From: an uncultured Acidobacteriota bacterium
Lineage (GTDB): Bacteria; Acidobacteriota; JAQAZP01
Reading direction: 5' to 3'
Length of the DNA stretch: 64,000 nucleotides
Assembly: GCA_963836075.1 (NCBI GenBank)
Contig: CAWIIB010000009.1
Location: 3,296,001 to 3,360,000 of the forward strand
The notes under the pieces are model-generated. The model was given only the letters and a program-made list of their open reading frames with translations. It had not been told where the DNA came from and ran no database searches. This document shows positions 2,367 to 51,003 of this stretch, piece by piece. Position 1 is the first letter of the stretch; each line of letters begins with the position of its first letter. Position numbers and translations under genes: made by a program.

Positions 2367-3272
2367 ATGGATGCACACCTGGGACAACTGGCCGCCCTGG
2401 CCACGGCCATCTGCTGGACCGTCACCGCCATGGCCTTCGAGTCGGCGGGCAAGCGGGTGGGTTCGCTGCCGGTGAACCTGTTGCGGCTGCTGATGGCCAT
2501 CGTCTTTCTCAGCCTCTACTCGCTGGTGATGCGCGGTCGGCTGTTTCCCACCGATGCTTCGGCGCACGCCTGGCTCTGGCTCTCGGTTTCCGGAATCATC
2601 GGCTTCCTGCTGGGCGATCTCTTCCTCTTCCGTGCCTTCGTGGTCATCGGCGCGCGGATTTCCATGCTGATCATGTCTGCCGTGCCGCCGATCACGGCAC
2701 TGCTGGGCTGGCTGTTGCTGGACGAACGGCTCAGTAGCACCAACCTGGTGGGCATGGGCCTGACCATGGCCGGAATTATCTGGGTTGTGCTGGAGCGGGG
2801 GAGGGGCGAAGCCGGCACGGCCGGGGAGTCCCGGGGATCCCGTCCGCTGGCCGGCATTCTGATGGCCTTCGGCGGCGCCTTGGGGCAGGCGGTGGGCCTG
2901 GTGCTGAGCAAGTACGGCATGGGCGACTACGATGCTTTCGCCGCTACCCAGATACGGATTATCGCCGGCGCCATCGGTTTTGTTCTTCTTTTCTTCATCC
3001 GTCCCACCTGGCGCAGGGTGGGGACGGCGCTCCGTGACCGCCCGGCCATGGGGCGTATTACCCTCGGTGCCTTTTTCGGACCGTTCCTCGGCGTATCGTT
3101 ATCGCTGCTGGCGGTGCAGTACACCGAGTCGGGCGTGGCGGCGACGATCATGTCCATCGTACCGGTGCTGATCATTGTCCCGGCGATCATCGTCTTCAAG
3201 GAGCGGCCCACGGTGCGGGAGGTGGTGGGGGCTATCGTGGCGGTGGCCGGCGTGGCGGTGATGTTCCTCTGA
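2367..3272 (+). CDS. DMT/EamA family transporter
   Basis: 301 aa, about 10 hydrophobic helices in two EamA-like halves (LLDERLS, VFKERPT). Confidence 0.9.
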   Translation: MDAHLGQLAALATAICWTVTAMAFESAGKRVGSLPVNLLRLLMAIVFLSLYSLVMRGRLFPTDASAHAWLWLSVSGIIGFLLGDLFLFRAFVVIGARISMLIMSAVPPITALLGWLLLDERLSSTNLVGMGLTMAGIIWVVLERGRGEAGTAGESRGSRPLAGILMAFGGALGQAVGLVLSKYGMGDYDAFAATQIRIIAGAIGFVLLFFIRPTWRRVGTALRDRPAMGRITLGAFFGPFLGVSLSLLAVQYTESGVAATIMSIVPVLIIVPAIIVFKERPTVREVVGAIVAVAGVAVMFL

Positions 3273-3302
3273 GGATCACCGCCGCCACGCCGTCCGGGTC
3301 TG

Positions 3303-5528
<2,226 letters not shown>

Positions 5529-16063: not shown

Positions 16064-17503
16064 TCACTCGACATACCCGAGAACCCGCAGCCGTTCCCTG
16101 GTTGCCGGGCTGAACTCGGGAACCGCGGACCGTTCGCCGGCCGACGGCAGTTCCTCGAGAAGCGCCTCCATCCCGCCGCGCAACGCCTGCCCCACCTCCG
16201 GCATCGATTCGATCAGGTTGTCATACTCTCCGGGGTCGCTGGACAGGTGGTAGAGTTCGCTGATCTGGTCCGAGCCGACGATGAGCTTGTAATCGCCCCG
16301 GATCAAGCTGCGCAGGCTGCGGCGGTAGCGGTCGAGGACCGAGAGGTCGCGGTCCCGCTGACGGAAGGCGCCCAGGGCCTGCTGCGGATACCCGTACTCG
16401 GAGAGGAGCGGCCGGTCCCGGTCAATCCGCTCCCACTGTTCGGGAAGCAGGGGAATGGCGTGGCCCGGTTCTCCTTCCGATTCCAGGCCGCAGGCCTGCA
16501 CAAGGGTGGGGAAGATGTCGCTGATCACCACCGGTGCGTCGCAGGTCGCCCCGGCCGGGAACAGCTCGCGGTGGACCATGATCAGCGGGATGTGCAGCGT
16601 GGTGTTGTAGAGTGAAAAGACATGGTCCACCAGGCCGTGTTCGCCGAGATTCTCCCCGTGGTCCGAAGTGACCACCAGCACCGTGTTGTCCATCATCCCC
16701 TCACGCTCCAGCAGGCCGGCCACGTCTTCCATCGCTTCGTCGAGGCGGCGCAGCTCGGCGTCGTAGAGCGAGCTGAGCAGGCGGAAGGCCAGTGCGTCGT
16801 AGACGATCCGGCCCAGGAAGTAGTCGGTCCACCGCTGGGGCAGTGCCCTCGCCGCGGCCAGTTCCCTCTCCTCCAGCATCAGCAGGGCCTGGCGGTCAGG
16901 GGGGCGGTACGGGGCATGGGTGTCGAGGTAGTTGATGAACAGGAATAGCGGCTTCTCCCGGTTCCGCTCCTGCTTCCACCAGCGCCGCAGCTCGTAGTTC
17001 ACCCGGTGGGGGTAGCTGTCTCCCCAGCGGGTTATCTTTTTCGTTCGCTCCATTTTCCAGACCTCGTGAAAGGTCTGGAACCCCTGGGAAAGGTTGGTGG
17101 AACTGCCCACCAGGGGGTTGGCGGAGAAGGCCACGGTCTGGTAGCCCTGTGCGGCGAAGCGTTCGGCCAGTGTCAGGCAGCTGTCTTCCAGGTAGAGGTG
17201 TTCCTGGGTCGCCCCGTGGGAGAAGGGATAGAGGCCGGTGAACATGCTGGCGTGGGACGGAAGAGTCCAGCAGGACGTGGAATAGGCCCGGGTGAACCGG
17301 ACGCCCTGTCCGGCCAGCCGGTCGAGGAAGGGCGTCGTCTCCCGCTGATAGCCGTAGCTGCCGAACCGGTCGGCTCGCGAGGTGTCCAGAACCACCAGCA
17401 CCACGCTGGGCGGCAGCTCCTGCCGGGGTGAGCACTGGAGCAGGCCCAGGACCGCTGCTCCGGCAACAGCCAGCAAGATGGTAAGCGATGCGGTTCTGTT
17501 CAT
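16064..17503 (-). CDS. Sulfatase-like alkaline phosphatase superfamily protein (Thr nucleophile)
   Basis: LDTSRAD, WTLPSHASMFTG, DTH, SDHGE motifs; C-terminal LRVLGY. Confidence 0.88.
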   Translation of the reverse strand: MNRTASLTILLAVAGAAVLGLLQCSPRQELPPSVVLVVLDTSRADRFGSYGYQRETTPFLDRLAGQGVRFTRAYSTSCWTLPSHASMFTGLYPFSHGATQEHLYLEDSCLTLAERFAAQGYQTVAFSANPLVGSSTNLSQGFQTFHEVWKMERTKKITRWGDSYPHRVNYELRRWWKQERNREKPLFLFINYLDTHAPYRPPDRQALLMLEERELAAARALPQRWTDYFLGRIVYDALAFRLLSSLYDAELRRLDEAMEDVAGLLEREGMMDNTVLVVTSDHGENLGEHGLVDHVFSLYNTTLHIPLIMVHRELFPAGATCDAPVVISDIFPTLVQACGLESEGEPGHAIPLLPEQWERIDRDRPLLSEYGYPQQALGAFRQRDRDLSVLDRYRRSLRSLIRGDYKLIVGSDQISELYHLSSDPGEYDNLIESMPEVGQALRGGMEALLEELPSAGERSAVPEFSPATRERLRVLGYVE

Positions 17504-19502: not shown

Positions 19503-19681
19503 CTACCCACCAGTCTATTCCGGCTCGGTCGCTGCCGCCGGCTTTGCGGAAATCCGGCATGCTGAAATCAGGACAACCTGGAGAGCATACGTGAAAGCGG
19601 ATTTATTGCCAACCGTTGACACCCGTGGGGGCCGGAACTATCCTTTTCCCGCCCTGGTTTCCCGCGGGCCTGGAGGATCGA

Positions 19682-21046
19682 ATGCGAGAACTGATGACAT
19701 CGCTGGCCGTGCTCGGCGTCGCTACGGTGCTCATCTATCTCCTGCTGGTTGCCGGCGGCGGTGATGTGGTTACCGTCGAGTCGGCCGGCGGCCCCTGGAA
19801 CCTGATCCTCCTCACCCTGGACACGCTCCGCGCTGACCACCTCGGCTGCTACGGGTATTTCCGGGAAACCTCACCTGCCATCGACCGCCTTGCCGGTGAG
19901 TCCGCAGTCTTTGACAACGCCATCATCCCTTCACCCTTTACCGCGCCCTCCCACGCCACCATGCTCACCGGCCTCTATCCCGCAGGGCACGGGGTGCTGA
20001 CCAACGGCTACCGGCTGGTCAGCGCCAACCGCTCGTTGGCCGAGGTGCTGCGGGACAGCGGATACCGCACCGCCGGCTTTGTCGCCGCCCGGCGGGTGCT
20101 GGGTCGGCGGTTCGGCTTCGGCCAGGGTTTCGAGGTTTTCGAGGAAGGGGAGGCGGACCAGCGGCGGGCCGCCGAGGTCAACCGGGAGGTCACGGCCTGG
20201 CTCGAGACCCTCGGCGACGGGGAGCGTTTTTTTGCCTGGATCCACTACTACGACATCCACTGCGACTACCAGGCGCCCGAGCCCTGGTTCGAGCTGTTCT
20301 GCCCCGGCTACGGCGGGGATATCGACCCGCACGGCAAGTGCGGCAAGTCGTATTACAACAGTGCCGAGCTGGACGACGAGGACCTGGATTACGTCCGCTC
20401 GCTCTACGACGGTGAGATCCGCTACGTCGACGAGCAGATCTCCGGGCTGCTGGACCGGCTGGCGGAAACCGGGCTGCTCCACCGGACGATCATCGTCATC
20501 ACCTCCGACCATGGCGAGTCTCTGGGCGAGCGGGGCCTCGTGGGCCACAACCTCTGCCTCTACGACTACGAGATCCGCGTGCCGTTGATCATCCGCCACC
20601 CGGGGCTCGCCGCGGCCCCGTCCCGGATCGGGAACCTGGTGTCCACTGCTTCGCTGATGCCGAGCCTGCTCGAACTGCTGGGCATCGCCCACCACGGGGA
20701 TCTGGATGAGACCAGTTTCGCCGGCCTGCTCCACGGCCGTCCCCGGCGCCCCTCGTTTGGATTTTCCCACACCGCTCCCGAAGGCCAGGCCGCCCAGCTC
20801 TTCAGCATCCGCACCCGGGACCGCAAGCTGATCCTCAACCCGGACGGCCGGCAGGAATTCTACTCGCTGAATAACGGCGTGGAGCAGGACCCGCCGGCAG
20901 GTGACCGGGATCAATCGGCGGAGCAACTCCGAAATGCGCTCAGCCGGTGGATCCTCCACCGGGAAGAGCGTGCGTCGGGCAAGGGCCAGGCGGTCAGTGA
21001 CGAGGTGAAGCAGCAGTTGAAGGCACTGGGCTACGTCAACCAGTAG
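19682..21046 (+). CDS. Sulfatase-like alkaline phosphatase superfamily protein (Thr nucleophile)
   Basis: LDTLRADH, FTAPSHATMLTG, DIH, SDHGE; C-terminal LKALGY; GGAGG before ATG 19682. Confidence 0.88.
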   Translation: MRELMTSLAVLGVATVLIYLLLVAGGGDVVTVESAGGPWNLILLTLDTLRADHLGCYGYFRETSPAIDRLAGESAVFDNAIIPSPFTAPSHATMLTGLYPAGHGVLTNGYRLVSANRSLAEVLRDSGYRTAGFVAARRVLGRRFGFGQGFEVFEEGEADQRRAAEVNREVTAWLETLGDGERFFAWIHYYDIHCDYQAPEPWFELFCPGYGGDIDPHGKCGKSYYNSAELDDEDLDYVRSLYDGEIRYVDEQISGLLDRLAETGLLHRTIIVITSDHGESLGERGLVGHNLCLYDYEIRVPLIIRHPGLAAAPSRIGNLVSTASLMPSLLELLGIAHHGDLDETSFAGLLHGRPRRPSFGFSHTAPEGQAAQLFSIRTRDRKLILNPDGRQEFYSLNNGVEQDPPAGDRDQSAEQLRNALSRWILHREERASGKGQAVSDEVKQQLKALGYVNQ

Positions 21047-32103: not shown

Positions 32104-34110
32104 GTGGCCAAGTCCGATAACACCGCGTACCGGTTGACCGGTGAACTGTTTCTTCGGCTGCGGGTCGGCCTGCTGGCCGGTCTGGCCGCAGGGGCCCTGG
32201 TGGGCATGGCGGAGGGCCTCTGGCTGCTCATCTTCAATTGGGGATCGATCAACCCCGGTGTCCTGCTTTACGGGGCGGTGCTCTACTCGCTGATCGGGGC
32301 CGGAATGGGTCTCGGTCTCGGTCTGGTGCTGGGCATCCTCAGTATGGTGCTGAAGAAAACCGGCGAAGCCGCCGGGATTTACGGGCTGATTTTCGCGGTG
32401 GTTTTTGCCCTGAACGGCCTGGTGATCTTCCGCTTTCGGATTTTCCGTGACGTGATGCACGAACAGCCGATACCGCTGTTGATCAATCTGGCCCTGCTGG
32501 CGGTGTTCGTCCTGCTCTTCCTTGTTTTCGCCTTCGTGCTCCGCCTGCTGGTCAAGAACACGCCGCTCAAGGGGCTGGCCAAAGTGGTGGGTACCTTGCT
32601 CATCGTGGGCAGCTTCTTCTTCGTCCTCTTCCTGGTCCAGCTGGCCGGGACGTATGTGCACAGGGTCAAGGGGCCGGCCCTGATCAGCGCCCCCGGCGAA
32701 GAAAAAGCGGTCCAGGGGCCGAGCGTGCTGCTGCTGATGATCGACACCCTGCGTGCCGACCGGCTCTCCTGTTACGGATATGAGGGGAACGAGACACCGG
32801 TGATCGACGGGCTGGCCGGCGACGGCATCCTCTTCCAGAACCAGATCGCCCAGTCCTCCTGGACGCGTCCGGCAGTGGCCTCCATACTCACCTCGCTCTA
32901 TCCCTCGTCGCACAAGACCTACCTCAAGCCGGACATGCTGCCCGACGAGGTGGTCACCCTGCCCGAGGCGCTGAAGGAGCAGGGCTACAGGACCATCGGT
33001 TTTGCGGACAACATCAACGTCACCGAGGCGTTCAACTTCCAGCAGGGGTTCGACCGGTTCGTCTACCTCGCCCCCGACTACTTCTTCCTCGCTGACGAGT
33101 CCTCATCCCAGCTGGCCTACTACAGCGTGCTGCGGCTGATCCGCGAGCGGTTCCTCTCGAGGAAGAAATATGTCCAGCACTACTACCAGGACGCCGACGT
33201 GGTCAACCAGAGCGTGATCCAGGCGCTGGAGGGGCTGGACAGTTCCTCGCCGGCTTTTATCTTTGCCCACTACATGGATCCCCACGATCCCTATTTCACC
33301 CACCCCTATGACGGATATGGCGTGGCCCGGGTCAGCATGCCTCACCCGCCGGCCGAGATGGCCGAGGAGCTCTCGCAACTGTACGACGGCGAGGTCAGCT
33401 TTCTCGACGAACGTCTGGGCCAGCTCTTTGACCGGATGCGCGAACTGGGGATCTACGACGACTGGACCATCGTGCTCACCGCCGACCATGGCGAGGAGTT
33501 TTATGAACACCAGGGCTGGTGGCACGGCCTCACCCTCTACCAGGAGCAGGTGAACGTCCCGCTGATCATCAAGCTTCCCGGTTCCCAATTCGCCGGGCTG
33601 CGGGTCCCCGGCCTGGTGCGGCAGATCGACATCTGTCCCACCGTCCTGGCCCTGGCCGGCGGCAGCCACGACGACTTCCAGGGCATCGACCTGATGCCGG
33701 CGGTGGCCGGTCTGGTCACCCCGCCCGTTGTGGAAGGTGAGGGCGAGGCGGAGGAGGTTCCGCAGGGCGGAACCGACAACGTGGTCTGGCAGCTGGACTC
33801 GGTCTTCTCCGAGGAGGACCACGAGGGTAACGTGATTCACGCGCTGATCGCCGGCAAGTGGAAACTGATTCGGGCCAACGAGGGCAATCCCCGCGGCCTG
33901 CCGGTCCTCGCCCTCTACAACCTCGAGGACGATCCCGGGGAGACCACCAACCTGGCTGACGGCAACACCGAGCTGGTGGCCGAGCTGGACAGGCAGCTGG
34001 AGGAGCGGCTCACCGTCGCTCTGGAATCGGCTGTCCAGCGGGTTGAAGGGGACGAGATGGACGAGGCCACTCGCAGCCGTCTCGAGGCCCTCGGCTACCT
34101 GGAGGAGTAA
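32104..34110 (+). CDS. Membrane-anchored sulfatase-like hydrolase/transferase (5 N-terminal TM helices, Thr nucleophile)
   Basis: IDTLRAD, SWTRPAVASILTS, DPH, ADHGE; C-terminal LEALGY. Confidence 0.88.
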   Translation: MAKSDNTAYRLTGELFLRLRVGLLAGLAAGALVGMAEGLWLLIFNWGSINPGVLLYGAVLYSLIGAGMGLGLGLVLGILSMVLKKTGEAAGIYGLIFAVVFALNGLVIFRFRIFRDVMHEQPIPLLINLALLAVFVLLFLVFAFVLRLLVKNTPLKGLAKVVGTLLIVGSFFFVLFLVQLAGTYVHRVKGPALISAPGEEKAVQGPSVLLLMIDTLRADRLSCYGYEGNETPVIDGLAGDGILFQNQIAQSSWTRPAVASILTSLYPSSHKTYLKPDMLPDEVVTLPEALKEQGYRTIGFADNINVTEAFNFQQGFDRFVYLAPDYFFLADESSSQLAYYSVLRLIRERFLSRKKYVQHYYQDADVVNQSVIQALEGLDSSSPAFIFAHYMDPHDPYFTHPYDGYGVARVSMPHPPAEMAEELSQLYDGEVSFLDERLGQLFDRMRELGIYDDWTIVLTADHGEEFYEHQGWWHGLTLYQEQVNVPLIIKLPGSQFAGLRVPGLVRQIDICPTVLALAGGSHDDFQGIDLMPAVAGLVTPPVVEGEGEAEEVPQGGTDNVVWQLDSVFSEEDHEGNVIHALIAGKWKLIRANEGNPRGLPVLALYNLEDDPGETTNLADGNTELVAELDRQLEERLTVALESAVQRVEGDEMDEATRSRLEALGYLEE

Positions 34111-40406: not shown

Positions 40407-41375
40407 TCAGCAGGAGTGGTGGACCGTGGTGAAGGGGATGACCAGCGGGAAGCGGTCGGACAGTTCCTCCACCAGGCGGTGCTGTTCACCAGGGGCGGTG
40501 AGGGCAATGACAGCCCCGCCGCCGCCTGAGCCGGTGAGCTTGGCCCCCAGGACGCCTTTCTGCCGGCGCAGCAGGGCAGTGGCCCGGTCGAGTTCAGGCG
40601 TGGAGACACCCAGTTGAGCCAGCAGCTCGTGGTTGCGGTTCATCAGCTCGCCGGTTTTGGCCAGGTTGCCGGAGACCAGAAGGCTGCTCGCCTCTTCCGC
40701 AATCCGGCCGATTTCATTGAGCAATCCCTTGACCAGCCGTTCGTCCAGGACCAGGTTCTGGCGCACCCTGCGCACCTGCTCCAGGGTGGAGGCTCCAGGT
40801 TCGACGATACCGATCAGGCCCGACGGCGGGGTGGGGATGCGGAGGGGCAGGATTTCCCGCGGGGGCCCCTTGCGAAACCGGAGCACGCCATCGGCCAGCA
40901 CGGTGGCGGCGTCCATGCCGCTGGGGTTGCCGTGAAAGATCGATTCCAGCTGCTGCACGTCGTCGAAGAGCGTGCTCTCGCTGTCGCTCTCCTCATGTCC
41001 GGCATGGCGGCGCAGGGCCTTGCAGACCCCGGCGGAGAATGCCGCCGAAGAACCGAGACCCATACCCACCGGCAGGTCCGACTCCACCTCCAGGGCGATG
41101 GGCTCCTGTTCCAGGTTGTAGATCGAGAGGCCCTGCTGCACCGCCCGGGAGAAGAGATCGAAGCTCGACTCCGGTTCGGTCTCGCCGAAATACTGCTTGA
41201 ACCGCGGGCGGACCAGCCGCGGCCCCCGGGGATCGTGGCTCACCCGGATGCGCATTCCGATGTCGATGGGGGCGGCGATGCCGGGATGGCCGTAAACCGT
41301 GGCGTGCTCGCCAAAGAGAATCAGCTTCCCCGGAGCCGGTACCTCGAAGGGCAGGTTGGCCTGATTTCTGTTCAT
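40407..41375 (-). CDS. mvk: Mevalonate kinase (GHMP family)
   Basis: PGKLILFGEHATVYG, PVGMGLGSSAA, HGNPSGMD and GAKLTGSGGGG motifs. Confidence 0.92.
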   Translation of the reverse strand: MNRNQANLPFEVPAPGKLILFGEHATVYGHPGIAAPIDIGMRIRVSHDPRGPRLVRPRFKQYFGETEPESSFDLFSRAVQQGLSIYNLEQEPIALEVESDLPVGMGLGSSAAFSAGVCKALRRHAGHEESDSESTLFDDVQQLESIFHGNPSGMDAATVLADGVLRFRKGPPREILPLRIPTPPSGLIGIVEPGASTLEQVRRVRQNLVLDERLVKGLLNEIGRIAEEASSLLVSGNLAKTGELMNRNHELLAQLGVSTPELDRATALLRRQKGVLGAKLTGSGGGGAVIALTAPGEQHRLVEELSDRFPLVIPFTTVHHSC

Positions 41376-41382
41376 TGGGCGT

Positions 41383-42459
41383 TTACGATTCGTGCCATCC
41401 CTTGGCGGAGAGCCAGCGGAACAGTTCCCCGGTGTAGACCCGGGGCGCCCGCTTCAAGGCAGCGAGGTCTCCGGCCCCGGTGAGCACCATGGCGTTTTTC
41501 AACTCACGAATCACCCGGTCCACATACTGGTCCGCGCCGTGGACGCCCCCTTCGCGGTAGGCGAGGAACACCGAGCGGGCAAAACCGACCAGGTCGGCGC
41601 CGGCGGCGATGGCCCGTGCGGCGTCGAGACCGGTGATGATCCCCCCGGCGCCGATGATGCAGGTGCCGGGACGGCAGGTCCTGCGGGCGGCGATGATGCT
41701 GAAAGCGGTGGGAATGCCCCAGTCGGCAAAGGTACCGGCGATCTGCCTCGAGGAGTCGTCAACTTCGCGGTGCATCTCCACCTTGGTCCAGGAGGTGCCC
41801 CCGGCCCCGGCCACATCGATGCAGGTGACCCCGGCCCGGTCGAGCATGGCCAGGGTCTCAGGGCTCATTCCTGCGCCGGTCTCCTTGACCAGTACCCTGC
41901 CGGGGATGCGTTTGACCAGCTTTTCCAGAGCGTTGAGGATTCCGCCGAAGTTGCAGTCCCCCTCGGGCTGCACCAGCTCCTGGGCCGGGTTGAGGTGGAT
42001 GCAGATGGCGTCGGCCTCGATCTGTTCCTTGAGCCCGGCGATGGCGGCGGTATCGTATTCCAGCAACTGGGCCCCGCCGATGTTGCCCAGCAGTACCGAC
42101 TCGGGGATGTGACTGCGCACGGCGAAGTCGGTGAGCGCCTCGGGGTGGTCGAGGATCACCCGCTGGCTGCCCACCCCGAACCCGATGCCATGCTCGGCGG
42201 CCACGGTGGCCAGATCACGATTCATCGCCCCGGCCAGCTCGGTGCCGCCGGACATGCTGGTGATCAGCAGCGGGGCCCTGAGCTTCCGCCCGAAGAACTC
42301 CACCGATGTGTCCACACTGTCCAGGTCGATTTCGGGCAGGGCCTGGTGGAACAGCCGCACGTGCTCCAGCAGGGTGGTGGACGCGTGGGCCACCGGTTCC
42401 TCGGCCACGATCCGCAGGTGATCGGCCTTTCTCGTCCTGATTTGATGGTCCCTGGCCAT
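41383..42459 (-). CDS. fni: Type 2 isopentenyl-diphosphate delta-isomerase (FMN-dependent)
   Basis: RKADH, SMSGG, GSQR, HLNPAQE, KETGAG and GAGGTSW motifs. Confidence 0.95.
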   Translation of the reverse strand: MARDHQIRTRKADHLRIVAEEPVAHASTTLLEHVRLFHQALPEIDLDSVDTSVEFFGRKLRAPLLITSMSGGTELAGAMNRDLATVAAEHGIGFGVGSQRVILDHPEALTDFAVRSHIPESVLLGNIGGAQLLEYDTAAIAGLKEQIEADAICIHLNPAQELVQPEGDCNFGGILNALEKLVKRIPGRVLVKETGAGMSPETLAMLDRAGVTCIDVAGAGGTSWTKVEMHREVDDSSRQIAGTFADWGIPTAFSIIAARRTCRPGTCIIGAGGIITGLDAARAIAAGADLVGFARSVFLAYREGGVHGADQYVDRVIRELKNAMVLTGAGDLAALKRAPRVYTGELFRWLSAKGWHES

Positions 42460-42490
42460 GTCTCCTCGACTGAAAAGTTATATCCGAAAG

Positions 42491-42518
42491 ATGTTAGAAC
42501 ATTTTTCCAGTCTGTCAA
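42491..42518 (-). promoter_or_regulatory. Sigma-70-type promoter for fni-mvk
   Basis: - strand TTGACA-N16-TAACAT. Confidence 0.55.
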
Positions 42519-42593
42519 GGAATTCCTGTGCTGCCGAGCCTGTCCGGCAACCTGTCCGGGCCCCACTCGTCCCCGTCGGCCACCGAAGAAAAC

Positions 42594-42622
42594 TTGACCC
42601 CGTATAAGGAAAGACCTACACT
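42594..42622 (+). promoter_or_regulatory. Sigma-70-type promoter for the FG-GAP gene
   Basis: TTGACC-N17-TACACT upstream of GGAGG and ATG 42644. Confidence 0.55.
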
Positions 42623-42643
42623 TTCCAAAATGGAGGGCGAGCC

Positions 42644-45164
42644 ATGAACACTCTTCTGCGCCACCTTCTCCCTTTCGTTATCGTTGCGGTACTACTTACA
42701 TTCTGTTCCGGTTTGTCGGCCCTGGCCCACCCCTGGCTCTTCGAGGCGAGGATGGACTTTTTTGCCAACGATGAACCGGGAGGCATCGCCCATGGCGATT
42801 TCGATGCCGATGGTGCCGTCGATCTGGCGGTGACCAATTACGGATTGGAAACGATCACGATTTTCTTGGGCAAGGGGGACGGCACCTTCGATGAGCTGGG
42901 AGTATACGTCGTGGGGCACGAACCCTCATCGCTGGCCGCCGGGGACCTGAACGGCGACGGCCGGCCGGACCTTGCGGTATCCATGACATCTCCAGGATCG
43001 GTGCATGTTCTGCTGGGCAATGGTGACGGCACCTTCCAGGATGCCGTGCCCTACGGGACCGCTTCCGGCACGTATTGCGTGGTCATCGCCCACCTGGACT
43101 CCGATACGATTCCCGATCTGGTCACATCCAATTTTTACGAGGACTCTGTTTCCGTCTTTCTGGGCAACGGGGATGGAACATTCGAACATCTGGGAGACCA
43201 AGGCGCCGGTGACGGTCCCGCGTGGGTGGCCGTGGACGATTTTGACGGTGACGGGGATTCCGATCTGGTTACGGCCAATGCCTTTGCCCACACTGTCCGC
43301 ATTCTCCTGGGAAACGGAGACGGCAGTTTCCAGGCCGGCGCGGCCTACCAGGCTGGAAGCGACCCGAGGTCGGTGGCTGTGGGCCTGTTCAACGATGACA
43401 GCCACCCGGACCTGGTGGCGGCCAATCACCAGTCGGACTATCTCTCGCTGTTTCTGGGCAACGGTGATGGTACGTTCCAGCAGGCAATACAGATCGATTC
43501 CCACTTCAACATCCGTTCCCTCTCCGTTTCCGACCTTGATGAGGATGGTCATCAGGACCTGGTGACGGCAAATGTTGGAGACGATACGATCTCGGTGATG
43601 GCCGGCAACGGAAACGGCACTTTCGACGCGGCTGTGGACTACCGTACCGCCGAAGCCCCGTTGGACGTTGCGGTCGTGGACCTGGACGGTGACGGAATGT
43701 CCGATCTCAGTGTGGTGAACTTCTGGAGTGACAACATCTCGACATTCAGGGGTAACGGGGACGCCACCTTTGTTGTGCCGTTCTCCATCGAGGTCCATGA
43801 ACATCCCTGGTCGGTGGCCGCTGCAGATTTCAACGGCGACTCCATCCTCGACCTGGTGTCCGGCTCCGGGGTAGAGAGTTTGATCTCAGGTCCTGCTGGG
43901 ATACGGTGACGGCACCTTCCAGACTCCCGTGGACTATTCCGTGGGCGAAGAGCCGCAATCGATCGCCGTACGTGATCTGAACGGTGACGGCGCCCCTGAT
44001 CTGGTCACCGCCAACTACGACTCTGACGACCTGTCGGTGCTGCTGGGCAATGGTGACGGAACATTCCAGTCCGCGGTGGCGTACCAGGTCGGTAACGGTC
44101 CCGAATCGGTGGCCGCCGGCGACCTGGATGGTGACGGCATTCCCGACCTGATGGCGGCCAACAAGTACACCGACGATGTATCGGTGCTGCGGGGCAATGG
44201 TGACGGCACGTTTCAGGCCGCGGCATCGTTTCCAGCCGGTGATTCGCCAGGCGGAATGGCCGCCGGCGACCTGGACGGCGACGGGGCTCTCGACCTGGGC
44301 GTGGCCACGATGGATGGCCTCGCCGTGCTTGCGGGGAATGGTGGGGGGGCATTTGGGAACCCCGTGTTCTACCCGGCAGGCCCGGACCCCTCCGCCGTGG
44401 TCATCGGCGATTTTGATGAGAACGGCATCCCGGACCTGGCGGTGACCAACTACGAGAGCGACTATATTTCAATGTTTCTGGGTGTCGGTGACGGCACCTT
44501 TCAGGCCGCCATGAACCACGCGGTGGGCGACAAGCCCTATGCCATTGTCGCCGGCGATCTGGACGGGGACTTTCACCTCGACCTGGCGGTGGGGAACATC
44601 ATCAGCAACAATGTCGCCGTCCTGCCGGGCCACGGTGACGGCACCTTCGGCGACGTCTTGTTCTACGGTGCCGGATCCGGTCCTCCGACCCTCGCCATCG
44701 GAGACTTTGACCGGGATCGCCACCTCGACCTGGTTTCACCATCCACCGCCGACAGTCACCTTGAGCTGCTCTTCAACACCACCGGCCTGGTCAAGGGCAC
44801 CATCTGTGCCGGCCTGGACTGCACACCGTCCTGGGGCACACTGCCGTTCCCCGTCACCATGTCGGTGAGGGTGGACAACCTCTATCCCGGGCAGACCCGG
44901 CAGTTCGACGCCCGGATCCACGCCACCCTGGCCAGCGGCCAGTCCATTTACAGCTGGAAGGAGGGGTACCTGAACATCGCCGGCGGCTCCAGCCACACCG
45001 TATCCTGGACCCAGGGCTTTCCGCTGCACGACTCCCTGGTGGGCGAAAACCTCTTCATTCTGGGGACCGAGGATGTCACCCCCACACCCTTCAACCAGCC
45101 ACCCTACCCGCCGGCCGGGGACAAGTGGGGGGATGACTGCACGGTGACCGGCATGGCCCCATGA
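42644..45164 (+). CDS. Secreted FG-GAP/VCBS repeat protein with shared C-terminal domain, +1 frameshift near 43890
   Basis: About 14 GD(L/F)xGDGxxDL...LGNGDGTF repeats across two ORFs; join at ATC TCA G GTC CTG CTG GGA. Confidence 0.85.
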
Positions 45165-45172
45165 ACCGGCGA

Positions 45173-45201
45173 TTGACTGCATGTCGGCGGTGACATATCC
45201 T
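45173..45201 (+). promoter_or_regulatory. Sigma-70-type promoter for the UbiD-AcnX-ipk operon
   Basis: TTGACT-N17-TATCCT; AGGAGG before ATG 45267. Confidence 0.55.
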
Positions 45202-45266
45202 TCAGTTGCTGTTTTTCCACTCGATCTACAACGGGATCAGATTGTTACGGATCGCGAAGGAGGACC

Positions 45267-46547
45267 ATGACGCTCAAGTCATTTCTCGGCCTGGTGGATG
45301 AACGTTCCCTGCTGACAAGGGTCTCCCGGCCGGTGGATGTGCGTTACGAGCTGGCCGCGGTGGCCGGCCGTCTGGGTGAGAAACCGGTTCTGTTCAGCCA
45401 GGTAAAAGGCCATGACATGCCGGTGGCGGCCAATGTCTGTGCCAGCCGGGAACTGGTCTGTCTGGGCCTGGGTGTCTCCGCCGGCAACCTGGTGCCGCGG
45501 ATGATCGAGGCCATCGACCACCCCCGGGAGCCGGAGGTGGTGCAGGCCGAGGGATACGAGGAGCGTGCGGCAGACCTCTCGGCGCTGCCGATCCTGACCT
45601 ACTACCCGCGGGACGGGGGCCCCTATATCGCCTCCGGCATCATTTTCTGCCAGGACCGGGAACTGGGTCTCAACGCCTCCTACCACCGGGCCATGGTCAT
45701 CGGCGAGGACCGGCTGGCGCTGCGGATCCTGCCCCGCCACCTGCACCAGTACATGGAGCGGGGCCTCACCGAGTTCGCCTTCTGCATCGGCAACACCATC
45801 CCGGTGCTGGTGGGTGCGGCCATGTCGGTGGAACTGGACAAGAGTGAGCTGGCCATTGCCAACGCCCTGCAGCACACGGAGGCGGTGAAACTGGAGGGCC
45901 ATCTGATCCCGCAGAGCGAGCTGGTGCTGATCTGCGAGTTCACCGGTGAGCAGGCTGACGAGGGGCCGTTCCTCGACCTCACCGAGACCTTTGACATCGT
46001 GCGCAAGCAGCCGGTGGCCCGGGTGAAAAAGGTGTTCGCCCGGCCCGATTCGGTCTATCATGCCCTGCTCCCCGGCGGTCCGGAGCACAAGATCCTGATG
46101 GGCATGCCGCGGGAGCCGACCATTTTCAGGGAGGTGTCCCGGTATTGTGACTGCCTGGATGTCCGGATCACGCCTGGTGGCTGCTCCTGGCTCCACGCCG
46201 CGGTGAAAATCCGCAAGCAGGACGGTCTTGACGGCAGGCGGGCCATCGAGGCCGCCTTTGCCGGGCACAGTTCCATGAAGCATGTCTTCGTGGTGGACGA
46301 GGACATTGACATCGACGATCCGCATGCTCTGGAGTGGGCTCTGGCCACCCGTTTCCAGGGGGACCGGGACCTGGTGGTGCGGCCCGGGGAAAAGGGCTCC
46401 TCGCTGGACCCGTCGGCCGATCCGGAGACCCGGGAGACCACCAAACTCGGTTTTGACCTGACCATCCCCGCCGGGGGGGCGCCGGAGAAGTTCCTGCGTC
46501 CCGAGCCCCCGGTGAAAGTGGACCTCGAGGACTACCTGGAGAACTGA
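45267..46547 (+). CDS. UbiD-family prFMN-dependent decarboxylase, putative trans-anhydromevalonate 5-phosphate decarboxylase
   Basis: DGGPYI, NASYHR, EGPFLD, VVDEDID and GSSLDPS motifs; short 426-aa form; specific function inferred from operon context. Confidence 0.85.
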   Translation: MTLKSFLGLVDERSLLTRVSRPVDVRYELAAVAGRLGEKPVLFSQVKGHDMPVAANVCASRELVCLGLGVSAGNLVPRMIEAIDHPREPEVVQAEGYEERAADLSALPILTYYPRDGGPYIASGIIFCQDRELGLNASYHRAMVIGEDRLALRILPRHLHQYMERGLTEFAFCIGNTIPVLVGAAMSVELDKSELAIANALQHTEAVKLEGHLIPQSELVLICEFTGEQADEGPFLDLTETFDIVRKQPVARVKKVFARPDSVYHALLPGGPEHKILMGMPREPTIFREVSRYCDCLDVRITPGGCSWLHAAVKIRKQDGLDGRRAIEAAFAGHSSMKHVFVVDEDIDIDDPHALEWALATRFQGDRDLVVRPGEKGSSLDPSADPETRETTKLGFDLTIPAGGAPEKFLRPEPPVKVDLEDYLEN

Positions 46548-46554
46548 CCGAACC

Positions 46555-47742
46555 ATGGAACTGAGCAGGGAACAGCAGCGGCTGCTGGACGGCGAGCAGG
46601 GAGAGGTGACCTCCCGCCTGATGCGCCTGCTGGTCAGCCTGGGTGAGATCTTCGGGGCCCGGCGGATGGTGGATGTGGGCTCGACCCAGGTGTCCGGCGT
46701 GTCGTACAAATCGATCGGCGAGCCGGGGCTGGAGTTCCTTGAGGACCTGGCCCGGGAGGGCGTGCAGGTGAGAGTGCCCACCAGCCTCAACCCGGCCGGC
46801 ATGGACCTCCAGGGCTGGCGGGAACTGGGTATCCCCGAAGCCTTTGCCGTGAAACAGCAGCGGATCATGGCCGCCTTTGGCGCCATGGGGATCACCGCGC
46901 CGCCCACCTGCACCCCCTACCTCATCGGCAGCGTCCCCCAACCCGGCGAGCACGTGGCCTGGGCCGAGAGCTCGGCGGTGATCTTTGTCAACTCGGTGCT
47001 GGGGGCGCGGACCAACCGCGAGGGCGGCCCGTCGGCCCTGGCCGCGGCGGTCTGCGGCTGCACCCCCTGCTACGGCCTGCACCTCGACGAAAACCGGCGG
47101 CCCACGGTGCTGGTGGAGGTGGACGCCCGTCTCGAATCCAACGCCGACTACGGCGCCCTGGGCTACTGCCTGGGCCGCAAGGTGCGCGGGGCCATCCCCT
47201 TCATCACCGGGATCGAAGCGGCCGGCAGGGACAACCTCAAGTCGTTCGGCGCGGCCATGGCGGCCAGCGGAGCGGTGGCCCTGTACCACGCTCGGGGGGT
47301 GACTCCCGAGGCGCCGGAGATGCCCACCGCCGGCCTGGAGCGGATCAAGGTGGGGCAGGGCGAGCTGGACACGCTGGCCGCCGGTCTCGATGCCGGGGAG
47401 ACCCCCGACCTGGTGGTCACCGGCTGTCCCCACGCCTCGCTGGAGGAGGTGGCCGCGGTGGCCGGGCAGGTCCGCGGACGGACGCTCCGTGTGCCGGTCT
47501 GGGTCTGCACCTCCCGGGTGATCAAGGAGCGGGCGGAGAGCGAGGGCTACCTGGCCCGGATCGAGGCCGCCGGCGGACGTATCGTGGCCGACACCTGTAT
47601 GGTGGTCTCACCGCTGGAGGAGCTGGACTACGGGGTCACCTCGGTGGACTCGGGCAAGGCAGCCAACTACCTCCCCGGGTTCTGCCGGCAGAAGGTGAAC
47701 TTCCGCGACCTTCACGACATCATCGAGGAGGTGCTGGAATGA
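46555..47742 (+). CDS. Aconitase X catalytic subunit (DUF521), putative phosphomevalonate dehydratase large subunit
   Basis: SGVSY, LNPAGMD, TCTPY, WAESSA, GARTNREGG, GCPH and DTC motifs (three Cys candidates as Fe-S ligands). Confidence 0.88.
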   Translation: MELSREQQRLLDGEQGEVTSRLMRLLVSLGEIFGARRMVDVGSTQVSGVSYKSIGEPGLEFLEDLAREGVQVRVPTSLNPAGMDLQGWRELGIPEAFAVKQQRIMAAFGAMGITAPPTCTPYLIGSVPQPGEHVAWAESSAVIFVNSVLGARTNREGGPSALAAAVCGCTPCYGLHLDENRRPTVLVEVDARLESNADYGALGYCLGRKVRGAIPFITGIEAAGRDNLKSFGAAMAASGAVALYHARGVTPEAPEMPTAGLERIKVGQGELDTLAAGLDAGETPDLVVTGCPHASLEEVAAVAGQVRGRTLRVPVWVCTSRVIKERAESEGYLARIEAAGGRIVADTCMVVSPLEELDYGVTSVDSGKAANYLPGFCRQKVNFRDLHDIIEEVLE

Positions 47743-48122
47743 AGGGCCGGACCATCATGACCGGCAGGGCTGAAGGCCGGGCGCTGGTTTCGCGGACGCC
47801 GATCAGTTTCTACGGCGGGGTTGACGCCAAAACCGGGATGATCATCGAGCAGGGGCACGAACTGGAGGGGCAGTGTCTCAGCGGCACGATCCTCGTCTTC
47901 CCCTGCGGCAAGGGCTCCACCGTGGGCTCCTACGTGATCTACGGCCTGCAGAAGAACGGCGTGGCCCCGCTGGCCATCGTCAACGAGGAGACGGAGACCA
48001 TCATCGCCACCGGCGCCATCCTCGCCGGGATTCCCTGTGTGGACGGGGTCGACATCAGCGGCATCAGCAGCGGCGACAGACTGCGGGTGGACGGCGCCGC
48101 CGGCCTGGTGGAAAAGGACTGA
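47739..48122 (+). CDS. Aconitase X swivel subunit (DUF126), putative phosphomevalonate dehydratase small subunit
   Basis: ISFYGGVD and GKGSTVGSY motifs; ATGA overlap with the large subunit. Confidence 0.88.
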   Translation: MKGRTIMTGRAEGRALVSRTPISFYGGVDAKTGMIIEQGHELEGQCLSGTILVFPCGKGSTVGSYVIYGLQKNGVAPLAIVNEETETIIATGAILAGIPCVDGVDISGISSGDRLRVDGAAGLVEKD

Positions 48123-48129
48123 ACCGGAG

Positions 48130-48912
48130 ATGGGACAGCAACTGGTTTTCGTCAAGCTGGGCGGGTCGCTGATCACCGACAAGACGAAGCCGTACACCGC
48201 CAGGCCTGAAGTGATCGCCCGGGCGGCGTCCGAGATTCACCGGGCGCGGAACAAGGCCGGTCTGGCCCTGCTGGTGGGCCACGGCGGCGGCAGCTTCCCC
48301 CATGTCAGCGCCGCAAAGTACCGGATTCACAAGGGAGCCTCCGATGCCCGGGGCTGGGAGGGTTTTGCCAGGGTGCAGGCCGATGCGGCGCGACTGAACC
48401 GCATGGTTGTTTCGGCGCTGCTGGAAGCCGGGGAACCGGCCATCTCCGTCCAGCCTTCGGCGGCCTGCCTGGCCCGGGACCGCCGTCTGGAGCGCTGGGA
48501 TGGCCAGGCGCTGGAGCAGTGCCTGGCCCGGGGCCTGGTGCCGGTACCTTACGGCGATGTCTGTTTTGACGAGGCCCGGGGCTGCTGCATCCTCTCCACC
48601 GAGGAGATCTTCCGCTTTCTCGCTCCGCGGCTCCGACCTGCGCGGATCATCATGGCCGGCAAGACCGACGGCGTGCTGGACGAGGAGGGGAACACCGTCC
48701 CCGAGCTCACCCCCGCGGACCTCGGTCGAATGAAGAGTGCACTCTCCGCCTCGGACGGCGTGGCCGACGTCACCGGCGGCATGGTGCACAAGGTGGAGAG
48801 GGCCCTGGAGACCGGTGTGGCCACCCTGATCATCAACGGCCTGCGGCCCGGGGAACTGGAGAAGGCCCTCCTCGGCCGCCCGGTGGCCGGCACGCTGGTC
48901 ACCCGCGGCTGA
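48130..48912 (+). CDS. ipk: Isopentenyl phosphate kinase (amino acid kinase family)
   Basis: KLGGSLITDK, HGGGSFPH (contains the IPK-type His), GDV and DVTGGM motifs. Confidence 0.88.
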   Translation: MGQQLVFVKLGGSLITDKTKPYTARPEVIARAASEIHRARNKAGLALLVGHGGGSFPHVSAAKYRIHKGASDARGWEGFARVQADAARLNRMVVSALLEAGEPAISVQPSAACLARDRRLERWDGQALEQCLARGLVPVPYGDVCFDEARGCCILSTEEIFRFLAPRLRPARIIMAGKTDGVLDEEGNTVPELTPADLGRMKSALSASDGVADVTGGMVHKVERALETGVATLIINGLRPGELEKALLGRPVAGTLVTRG

Positions 48913-50103: not shown

Positions 50104-51003
50104 TCAGCCGATAAAGATGCCGATGGCCATCAGAATCGGCGTGGCAATCACAATGATCACGTTGCGGCCCAGGAAGGGCACCAGCTCGGGTATGGATGTG
50201 GCGTACCTGGCCGCGCCTCGAGCCGTTGGGATGGCGAGGAGCAGTGTGCCCAGACCCAGCAGGGCGAAGGGTGGAAGTTGCCGGAGGACCACACCGAGGA
50301 CGATGGAGAGATAGGCCAGGGCGAGGAACGTGATGTAGACCCGGACCGCGGCCGGGACGCCCCAGGCGATGGGCAGGTGGTGCCGGCCCACTTCACGATC
50401 GGCATCTACATCGGGGAACTGGTTGATCAGCAACAGGTTGCTGACCAGGAAAAAGGGGACCAGCGAGGCGATGAATGAGGGCCAGTTGTAAGTCCCGGTG
50501 AGGGCGAAGTGTGTGCCCATCACCATCAGCGGCCCGAAGCCGAGACCCGGGGCGATGAGGCAGATCAGGGGGCTGCGGGTGATCCAGCGGGTGTAGAGGA
50601 CGATGACCAGCAGGCCCAGCAGACCGAGGGGAATGATCCCCCAGCCGCGGAGGATGGTGAAATAGACGCCCACCGATACGGTGAACAAAGCCGAGGCCAC
50701 CCCGGTGAGCAGGGCCACGTGGGCCTGCCCCGGGTTGCCGGGCAGGGCGCCGCTGCCGCCGCTGAACGGCGTGCGCTCGGTCTTCATGTCGAGGCCGGTG
50801 CGAAAGTCGTCGAACTCGTTCAGGGCGTTTACGCTGATGTGTGCCGCCACGGCACCGGCGAGGGCCATAATCACCGGCAGCGGTGAGATGGAGGCGCCGC
50901 TCCAGACCGCGGTGGCCACGCCCGCCAGCACGCAGGCCGGGGTGAGGATCAGAAAAGGCAGGCGCATCGGCCCGAACAGGGGGCTGGGAGCGGCGTCGGT
51001 CAT
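50104..51003 (-). CDS. UbiA/MenA family prenyltransferase
   Basis: NALNEFDDFRTGLD, FSGGS and NQFPDVDAD motifs; multi-TM. Confidence 0.88.
   Translation of the reverse strand: MTDAAPSPLFGPMRLPFLILTPACVLAGVATAVWSGASISPLPVIMALAGAVAAHISVNALNEFDDFRTGLDMKTERTPFSGGSGALPGNPGQAHVALLTGVASALFTVSVGVYFTILRGWGIIPLGLLGLLVIVLYTRWITRSPLICLIAPGLGFGPLMVMGTHFALTGTYNWPSFIASLVPFFLVSNLLLINQFPDVDADREVGRHHLPIAWGVPAAVRVYITFLALAYLSIVLGVVLRQLPPFALLGLGTLLLAIPTARGAARYATSIPELVPFLGRNVIIVIATPILMAIGIFIG

Follow-up and report, generated by a model that had tools for sequence, protein, structure and literature searches.

A putative archaeal-type mevalonate pathway gene cluster conserved in a diderm genus of Acidobacteriota

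Introduction

The archaeal mevalonate route needs one ATP fewer per isopentenyl diphosphate (IPP), depends on an oxygen-sensitive iron-sulfur (Fe-S) dehydratase and is treated as almost exclusive to archaea. Its Aeropyrum pernix type, the archaeal modified mevalonate pathway, was reportedly described by Hayakawa et al. in 2018; the archaeal mevalonate pathway of a bacterium, Candidatus Promineifilum breve (Chloroflexota), is said to have been reported by Kanno et al. in 2024 (Appl Environ Microbiol). A haloarchaeal/Chloroflexota-type pathway consisting of mevalonate kinase (MVK), phosphomevalonate decarboxylase as well as isopentenyl phosphate kinase (IPK) reportedly goes back to Dellas 2013 and VanNice 2014. 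Here, we analyzed a stretch of 64,000 nucleotides (nt) from an uncultured sediment bacterium of the Acidobacteriota (the window, G000:C9:3296001-3360000). Between positions 40,407 and 48,912 it carries a gene cluster that very probably encodes, in a diderm member of this phylum, the lower half of an archaeal mevalonate pathway of the Aeropyrum type; its four-gene operon presumably derives from an archaeon.

In the accessible part of a survey of the field (PMC13001223), Chloroflexota with Ca. Promineifilum breve is the only phylum named for the archaeal route in bacteria, and the abstract of a 2023 paper calls the pathway 'unique to archaea'. An earlier note on this DNA, made from the sequence alone, had stated that bacterial examples are known mainly from Chloroflexota; the texts covered by our literature search, several of them excerpts, name no other phylum. 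A full-text search returned no report of phosphomevalonate dehydratase (PMDh) or anhydromevalonate phosphate decarboxylase (AMPD) in Acidobacteriota; supplementary tables lay outside this search and may list such bacteria. The string 'Acidobacteri' is not mentioned in a 2026 review of bacterial isoprenoid pathways.

Results

The gene cluster and its conservation in the genus

Gene identities, gene order, conservation, diagnostic residues, phylogenetic affinity and gene content were read from the sequence; enzyme activities, flux and the direction of gene transfer were deduced from them. The genome holding the window is designated G000, and the two sister species of the same genus are G001 and G002. 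The earlier note had placed six pathway genes in two units, the + strand one tightly coupled, which was borne out by family models scoring over their cut-offs and by the spacing of the genes. The six genes are, with lengths in amino acids (aa):

40407..41375, - strand: mvk, mevalonate kinase, 322 aa (TIGR00549, 209.6 bits, cut-off 163)
41383..42459, - strand: fni, type-2 (FMN) isopentenyl-diphosphate isomerase (IDI-2), 358 aa (TIGR02151, 351 bits, cut-off 281)
45267..46547, + strand: UbiD-family decarboxylase, putative anhydromevalonate phosphate decarboxylase, 426 aa (TIGR00148, 300 bits, cut-off 245; three of three UbiD Pfam domains)
46555..47742, + strand: aconitase X (AcnX) large subunit (AcnX-L), putative phosphomevalonate dehydratase large subunit, 395 aa (PF04412, 522 bits)
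47739..48122, + strand: AcnX small (swivel) subunit (AcnX-S), 127 aa (PF01989, 119.5 bits; NF003046, 173 bits, cut-off 163)
48130..48912, + strand: isopentenyl phosphate kinase (IPK), 260 aa from the ATG at 48130 (NF040647, 184.5 bits, cut-off 120)

Three gene pairs, namely UbiD and AcnX-L, AcnX-S and IPK, and fni and mvk, are each spaced by 7 nt, and the two AcnX genes share 4 nt. For IPK, the likely start is the ATG at 48130, which is preceded by GGAG; the GTG at 48037, which would give the longest frame, is a less probable start. Each of the six genes is present as a single copy in the genome (tblastn). Each of the three species of the genus has the archaeal-type cluster, which occurred in none of the 398 other sampled genomes of the phylum. 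PMDh-like AcnX (E <= 1e-90) was confined to 3 of 401 sampled genomes and 1 of 227 genera, namely the genus itself; the tallies for the phylum take in three genomes flagged as unpublished (G025, G048, G151), which enter no other result.

AcnX resembles phosphomevalonate dehydratase

Among proteins of solved structure, the best relative of AcnX-L was the PMDh of T. kodakarensis (TkPMDh, 7CNR) with 337 bits, whereas cis-3-hydroxyproline dehydratases reached 210-215 bits. For AcnX-S, chain B of 7CNR scored 144 bits as compared to 67 bits for hydroxyproline dehydratase. The top NCBIfam match of AcnX-L is the hydroxyproline dehydratase equivalog model NF051439, but its score of 293 bits is far under the cut-off of 700.

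Residues were compared using lists of mevalonate 5-phosphate contacts and of Fe-S ligand sites as given in PMC8184944 and PMC10040528, respectively. According to the latter, the [4Fe-4S] cluster in AcnX of type IIb is bound by three cysteines, located at sites A, 1 and B, and site C has none. Cys119, Cys291 and Cys348 of AcnX-L align with Cys110, Cys283 and Cys342 of the T. kodakarensis protein and position 350 is Val, which corresponds to the ligand pattern of type IIb. Furthermore, 13 of the 15 substrate-contact positions listed for TkPMDh (PMC8184944) are identical in the AcnX pair. Conserved residues of AcnX-L include the phosphate loop Gly48-Val49-Ser50, Asn79, Glu138-Ser139-Ser140, Lys368 and Tyr372, and Ser60-Thr61-Val62 of AcnX-S equals the catalytic triplet of TkPMDh. 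The two departures, Ser53 in place of Asn53 and Tyr25 of the small subunit in place of Leu27, are common to 80/80 and 77/77 sequences of the archaeal set.

The other AcnX proteins of the phylum (4 rows) deviate from this pattern at positions 47-50, 140 and 291; at position 47, where the proline-binding Asp is located, they carry Asp and the protein studied here carries Ser. A tree of AcnX-L (52 rows) split a PMDh-like clade from these other AcnX with a support of 100/100. Scores against PDB entries, diagnostic residues and the tree place AcnX on the side of archaeal PMDh and not of the hydroxyproline dehydratases, as had been supposed, and the pair is predicted to be a phosphomevalonate dehydratase of type IIb.

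UbiD as the partner decarboxylase

The best solved relatives of the UbiD-family protein were 6H6X (213 bits) and 6H6V (208 bits), followed by AnInD (7P9Q, 147 bits) and E. coli UbiD (2IDB, 108 bits). We take 6H6X and 6H6V to be the furan-dicarboxylate decarboxylase HmfF; some relatives of our protein carry the source annotation 'furandicarboxylate decarboxylase'. UbiD proteins linked to archaeal clusters scored much higher, namely 600-668 bits versus 213, 147 and 108 bits for the solved UbiDs. Sequences of its own clade share 82-92% identity. The next relatives in a large protein collection share 60-67%, and those named by organism are mostly archaeal, with the names Aenigmatarchaeota, Hadesarchaea, Thermoplasmatota and Hodarchaeaceae among them. 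By tree and identities, UbiD groups with the archaeal UbiDs of MVK-UbiD-AcnX clusters and not with aromatic-acid decarboxylases, as the archaeal-route proposal had implied.

A tblastn search identified this gene as the only UbiD-family gene of the genome. UbiX was found as a single copy (151.6 bits); hence, UbiD is the only evident client of UbiX.

MVK, IDI-2 and IPK

The best solved relatives of mvk are mevalonate kinases (6MDE, 110 bits). The gene was found in all three genomes of the genus, and its adjacency to fni is kept in G001 and G002. Identity of mvk was 25-32% to the MVKs of archaeal clusters and 29-33% to the MVKs of other Acidobacteriota; the corresponding values for fni were 36-44% and 40-43%. 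Among eight solved relatives of IPK, the best seven are IPKs or a close IPK relative (3LL9, 131 bits).

Other isoprenoid genes of the genome

The genome contains an operon encoding 3-hydroxy-3-methylglutaryl-CoA (HMG-CoA) synthase (TIGR00748, 524 bits), thiolase (NF004720, 540 bits) and a DUF35-like protein; a class II HMG-CoA reductase (TIGR00532, 422 bits) is encoded elsewhere. HMG-CoA synthase, HMG-CoA reductase and UbiX, all three of which had been named as genes to look for, are thus present. Profile searches of the 64-kb window detected no gene for phosphomevalonate kinase (PMK) or diphosphomevalonate decarboxylase (MDD), in agreement with the earlier note.

Genes of the methylerythritol phosphate (MEP) pathway gave a mixed result. 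IspH was found in none of the three genomes of the genus, nor was DXS over the cut-off, for which the best match was a split transketolase. However, five MEP enzymes persist. Dxr (TIGR00243, 414 bits) and IspG (453 bits) are encoded at G000:C9:2661624-2663854, G000 being the only genome searched for them; IspDF (C9:2596166-2597467) and IspE (C1:169502-170293) were found in G000 and likewise in both sister species. Archaeal ether lipids were considered as a possible product and rejected, as geranylgeranylglyceryl phosphate (GGGP) synthase (PF01884) was detected in 0/3 genomes of the genus.

Mevalonate genes in other Acidobacteriota

MVK (E <= 1e-30) was detected in 32 of 301 genomes and 19 of 185 genera of the phylum. 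IspH is present in 272 of the 301 genomes; those without it include the genus studied here and family f21 (0/11) and are largely MVK holders. Fifteen MVK loci of relatives were inspected. Seven carried MVK, an MDD-family gene, IPK and IDI-2, and two more carried the same set with MVK not detected; three showed an MDD/HMG-CoA reductase/MVK arrangement, one contained MVK alone and two gave no match. Neither AcnX nor UbiD occurred in any of these 15 loci. Clusters of IDI-2, MVK, MDD-family gene and IPK (L122-L126, L128-L130, L133) are common among MVK-bearing Acidobacteriota, which account for about one tenth of the sampled genomes. The situation in the phylum suggests a repeated or an old replacement of the MEP pathway by a mevalonate route.

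The 'archaeal-type' HMG-CoA synthase was examined as a possible mark of the same transfer. Of 301 sampled Acidobacteriota, 65 have a match over the cut-off of its model TIGR00748, and these are mostly genomes with IspH and without MVK. Hence, it is no mark of the operon transfer and was rejected as such.

Archaeal affinity of the four-gene operon

The 80 nearest AcnX-L loci among species-representative genomes were compared, and 77 of them are labelled archaeal. In 68 of these loci UbiD immediately precedes AcnX-L on its strand; AcnX-S follows downstream in 78, and 50 loci have MVK upstream of UbiD. Locus L010 lies on a 231-kb contig labelled Aenigmatarchaeota, which is indeed archaeal as it carries TFIIB and Trm1. 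Its gene order is the same, with MVK followed by UbiD (63% identity), AcnX-L (62%), AcnX-S (69%), IPK (59%) and IDI-2 (40%).

In a UbiD tree of 31 rows, rooted on a second archaeal cluster-linked subtype, the own clade was supported at 100/100 and its union with Schekmanbacteria- and Deltaproteobacteria-labelled sequences at 95/97. Further out, a group labelled Aenigmatarchaeota joined at 100/99 and Bathyarchaeia at 97/89, all of them within further archaeal rows. The IPK tree (18 rows) united the genus with L010 at 100/99, and this pair was sister to other IPKs of Acidobacteriota (96/94).

Apparently, only the four-gene operon was transferred, since mvk and fni are distant from their counterparts in archaeal clusters. 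The GC content at third codon positions (GC3) was 0.84-0.91 in the operon as compared to 0.84-0.86 in housekeeping genes of the window; this similarity to the host genes suggests that the transfer is old and not recent. UbiD, AcnX-L, AcnX-S and IPK were probably gained as one block from an archaeon, both the direction and the single-block nature of this event being deduced from trees and gene order.

Clusters of UbiD, AcnX-L and AcnX-S were also seen on two public contigs of metagenome-assembled genomes (MAGs) with bacterial labels, namely L015 (Methylomirabilota, additionally with MVK and IDI-2) and L041 (Candidatus Acidoferrum). Both were rejected as further bacterial examples: in the trees of AcnX and UbiD they fall within Bathyarchaeia, whose gene order they share, and are therefore probably mis-binned archaeal contigs; L041 hardly differs from a Bathyarchaeota locus. 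A third contig labelled Planctomycetota (L016) carries a gene for a UbiX-like flavoprotein (3013-3582) directly after AcnX-L and AcnX-S. With a length of 3.7 kb it was too short to judge and was set aside.

Host and assembly

The assembly comprises 6.23 Mb in 10 contigs with 94.7% completeness and 4.6% contamination, and the window is located on a contig of 3.5 Mb. Among 120 listed relatives of RpoB, all ten that are named by organism belong to the Acidobacteriota (66-69% identity). In a ranking of related genomes, G001 and G002 came first and the next ones shared only the phylum. LpxC (276 bits), encoded on the same contig as the cluster, and BamA (488 bits) are present; hence, the host is diderm. 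The cluster is flanked by bacterial genes encoding a sigma-54 activator, a MacAB adaptor, a PorE/OmpA-like protein and sulfatases. Thus, the diderm lineage proposed from the flanking genes agrees with LpxC, BamA and RpoB, and the contig proved bacterial and not chimeric, as judged by its length, its flanks and the recurrence of the cluster in both sister species.

The rpoB gene of G000 is frameshifted near its 3' end (G000:C9:2605496-2609843; L106 97-4035 and 3932-4444), which leaves 1312 aa with the last ~160 residues in another frame, whereas rpoB of relatives is whole (1432 aa). Hence, indel errors exist in this assembly.

A lone MDD-family gene in G000

A gene of the MDD family was found on the same contig as the cluster (G000:C9:107518-108496; L007 1423-2404, - strand). 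It is split by a frameshift, its C-terminal part scoring 167 bits and its N-terminal part 57 bits with TIGR01240, and it adjoins cydB and a methyltransferase gene, apart from any pathway gene. Contigs from four public runs were aligned to this locus. In run X1, a short-read contig (588 nt, depth 5.3, no other differences) has one letter fewer exactly at the frameshift (L007:2199); without the extra letter the frame encodes 326 aa as compared to 245 aa as assembled. The gene is therefore probably intact, and the frameshift is a likely assembly error.

The predicted protein is 40-49% identical to the MDD-family proteins of both cluster types of relatives alike, and it may prefer either the monophosphate or the diphosphate. 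No MDD-family gene turned up in the sister genomes G001 and G002 (91% and 100% complete).

Further features of the locus

Four additional features lie in or next to the intergenic region between the two units:

42491..42518, - strand: sigma-70-like promoter motif upstream of fni-mvk, TTGACA-16-TAACAT (10/12 matches, consensus match only)
42644-43909, + strand: FG-GAP repeat gene 1, 421 aa (PF13517, 200 bits)
43929-45164, + strand: FG-GAP repeat gene 2, 411 aa (PF13517, 154 bits)
45173..45201, + strand: sigma-70-like promoter motif upstream of the UbiD operon, TTGACT-17-TATCCT (9/12 matches, consensus match only)

The earlier gene list was right as to the six pathway genes and overlooked the two FG-GAP genes. 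This pair is found in G000 and G001 but not in G002, where the gap between fni and UbiD is 252 nt. Hence, the six pathway genes form one divergent unit that is interrupted by an insertion in two of the three species, and the FG-GAP genes stand outside the pathway. GC3 of the first FG-GAP gene was 0.69 as compared to about 0.85 in its neighbours. Sigma-70-like consensus sites numbered five in a 9.5-kb region versus 0.9 +/- 1.1 in shuffled sequences. A promoter motif for each unit, as proposed before, was found upstream of fni and of UbiD, in both cases as a consensus match only.

A UbiA-family prenyltransferase gene (window 50104-51003, - strand) is located two genes downstream of IPK; the protein is weakly MenA-like (93 bits, cut-off 264), and a counterpart of 90% identity is found near the cluster in G001. 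It may be a consumer of the pathway products. The flanks additionally contain three sulfatase-family genes and a type I phosphodiesterase gene (window 16064-17503, 19616-21046, 32104-34110), which fits a polymer-degrading lifestyle in sediment.

Discussion

By its gene content, the genus is a new bacterial and diderm holder of the known archaeal-type mevalonate pathway, which is fixed in this one genus of the Acidobacteriota. The proposed route would start with the thiolase/HMG-CoA synthase/DUF35 operon and the class II HMG-CoA reductase, which would provide mevalonate. MVK would then form mevalonate 5-phosphate, which the two-subunit AcnX of the [4Fe-4S] type would dehydrate to trans-anhydromevalonate 5-phosphate. 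Decarboxylation to isopentenyl phosphate would be carried out by the UbiD homologue, dependent on prenylated flavin mononucleotide (prFMN) supplied by the single UbiX. Finally, IPK would phosphorylate isopentenyl phosphate to IPP, and IDI-2 would isomerize IPP to dimethylallyl diphosphate. The operon was presumably acquired from an archaeon prior to the split of the three known species and would have taken the place of the decarboxylase step that is catalyzed by the MDD family in other mevalonate-using Acidobacteriota.

Several observations weigh against this interpretation. No AMPD structure was found among the solved relatives of UbiD, so that, with no solved or characterized AMPD as a reference, the identification of UbiD as AMPD rests on orthology and context. 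The AcnX-L tree places the bacterial clade as sister to 39 archaeal rows (81/98) on a long stem of 0.69 and not nested among them. PMK was searched for with a single model (TIGR01220) and detected in 0/3 genomes, but this model passed its cut-off in 0/14 control genomes as well. Dxr and IspG are retained in G000, and IspDF and IspE in all three species. Furthermore, the MDD-family protein and IPK together could give G000 another route from mevalonate 5-phosphate, one that depends on ATP; hence, the archaeal route may not be the only one in this genome. The earlier proposal that the bacterium makes isoprenoids by the archaeal route is thus supported by gene set, residues and trees, whereas the MDD-family gene may mean that this route is not used alone.

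This last point leads to another view of G000, in which the main flux would run through the haloarchaeal/Chloroflexota-type route of MVK, an MDD-family phosphomevalonate decarboxylase and IPK, and AcnX and UbiD would be a redundant or conditional bypass, e.g. at low oxygen or low ATP. The MDD-family gene shares the 3.5-Mb contig with the cluster and is recognized by its family model in both parts (167 + 57 bits), its frameshift amounts to a one-letter difference from a short-read contig in an assembly with indel errors in rpoB as well, and the combination of MVK, MDD-family gene, IPK and IDI-2 is the one seen in 7/15 loci of relatives, or nine when those lacking a detected MVK are included. 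However, the MDD family is found in neither sister species, while the AcnX/UbiD operon is in all three; the gene stands alone, away from pathway genes, and short-read support for its integrity amounts to one contig at a depth of 5.3. We consider this view unlikely, although far from negligible. A working MEP pathway with unrecognised first and last enzymes, to which the mevalonate cluster would be an addition and not the sole source of IPP, would explain why Dxr, IspDF, IspE and IspG are intact. Yet IspH was found in none of the three genomes, in a phylum in which 272 of 301 sampled genomes have it and in which IspH-less genomes are largely MVK carriers, DXS over the cut-off was likewise found in none of the three, and a partial MEP pathway beside a mevalonate pathway has precedents in Listeria and others, as stated in PMC13001223. 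Such a pathway is improbable.

AcnX and UbiD might also serve other metabolism, such as hydroxyproline dehydration and decarboxylation of aromatic or furan acids, and stand near mevalonate genes by chance. The top NCBIfam match of AcnX-L, the two top solved relatives of UbiD and the furandicarboxylate decarboxylase annotations of some relatives would fit this idea, which is nevertheless very improbable: the hydroxyproline dehydratase model stays far below its cut-off, the proline-binding Asp is replaced by Ser and a Cys of the 4Fe-4S type occupies site 1, the operon genes are 60-69% identical to genes of an archaeal cluster in conserved order, and the sister genomes have no other complete route to IPP. 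That archaeal DNA was misjoined or misbinned into a bacterial assembly is suggested by the bacterial-labelled contigs L015 and L041, to which exactly this seems to have happened. Here, however, the window is located 3.3 Mb along a contig of 3.5 Mb on which rpoB, dxr, ispG and lpxC are found as well, its flanks with the sigma-54 activator, the MacAB adaptor and the OmpA/PorE-like protein are bacterial, the same cluster recurs with the same UbiA and PorE neighbours in the independent assemblies G001 and G002, and its GC3 is that of the host. An artifact of this kind is hardly credible.

Within the archaeal-route interpretation, we tentatively propose a module swap. A lineage with the MVK/MDD-family/IPK route would have taken up the operon from an archaeon related to the Aenigmatarchaeota-labelled MAGs and lost DXS and IspH, and it would now be shedding the MDD-family decarboxylase, which is left in one of three species. 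As the UbiD clade includes sequences labelled Schekmanbacteria and Deltaproteobacteria, the archaeal route may have reached several bacterial phyla of anoxic sediments and not only Chloroflexota. Conservation of the cluster across the genus together with the missing end steps of the MEP pathway indicates that an operon transferred from archaea can replace part of an essential bacterial pathway.

The Acidobacteriota would thus be a second, unrelated and diderm phylum with the archaeal route beside the Chloroflexota, which bears on arguments about early evolution that are drawn from the distribution of mevalonate pathway types. Such bacterial enzymes would be candidates for engineering the ATP-saving route and are possibly easier to express than archaeal ones. 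Furthermore, G000 may hold both options for decarboxylation, so that the selective value of each would be directly comparable.

Compared with known systems at the level of single enzymes, AcnX shares the Pfam families PF04412 and PF01989 and the fold class with the cis-3-hydroxyproline dehydratases but differs in Fe-S ligand pattern and substrate pocket, and it scores lower against them (215 vs 337 bits for the large and 67 vs 144 bits for the small subunit). UbiD has the three-domain architecture of the solved decarboxylases 6H6X/6H6V, 7P9Q and 2IDB and, by family, their dependence on prFMN made by UbiX. At the level of pathways, the haloarchaeal/Chloroflexota type shares MVK, IPK and IDI-2 and lacks PMK, which the single model used did not detect here either; other Acidobacteriota have this arrangement (9/15 loci, MVK detected in 7/9), whereas here AcnX and UbiD appear to replace the decarboxylase step, with one ATP fewer. 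The archaeal modified mevalonate pathway of the A. pernix type agrees in MVK, two-subunit AcnX, a putative AMPD of the UbiD family with UbiX, IPK and IDI-2, in the order UbiD-AcnXL-AcnXS found in 68/80 nearest loci and in the conserved cluster and substrate residues of PMDh. It differs in that here the host is a diderm bacterium with lipopolysaccharide genes and a class II HMG-CoA reductase, mvk and fni are 25-44% identical to the archaeal genes, and five MEP genes and, in G000, an MDD-family gene coexist with it. Ca. Promineifilum breve of the Chloroflexota is, like the host of this cluster, a bacterium equipped with all genes for the archaeal route; here, the phylum is Acidobacteriota and the host is diderm.

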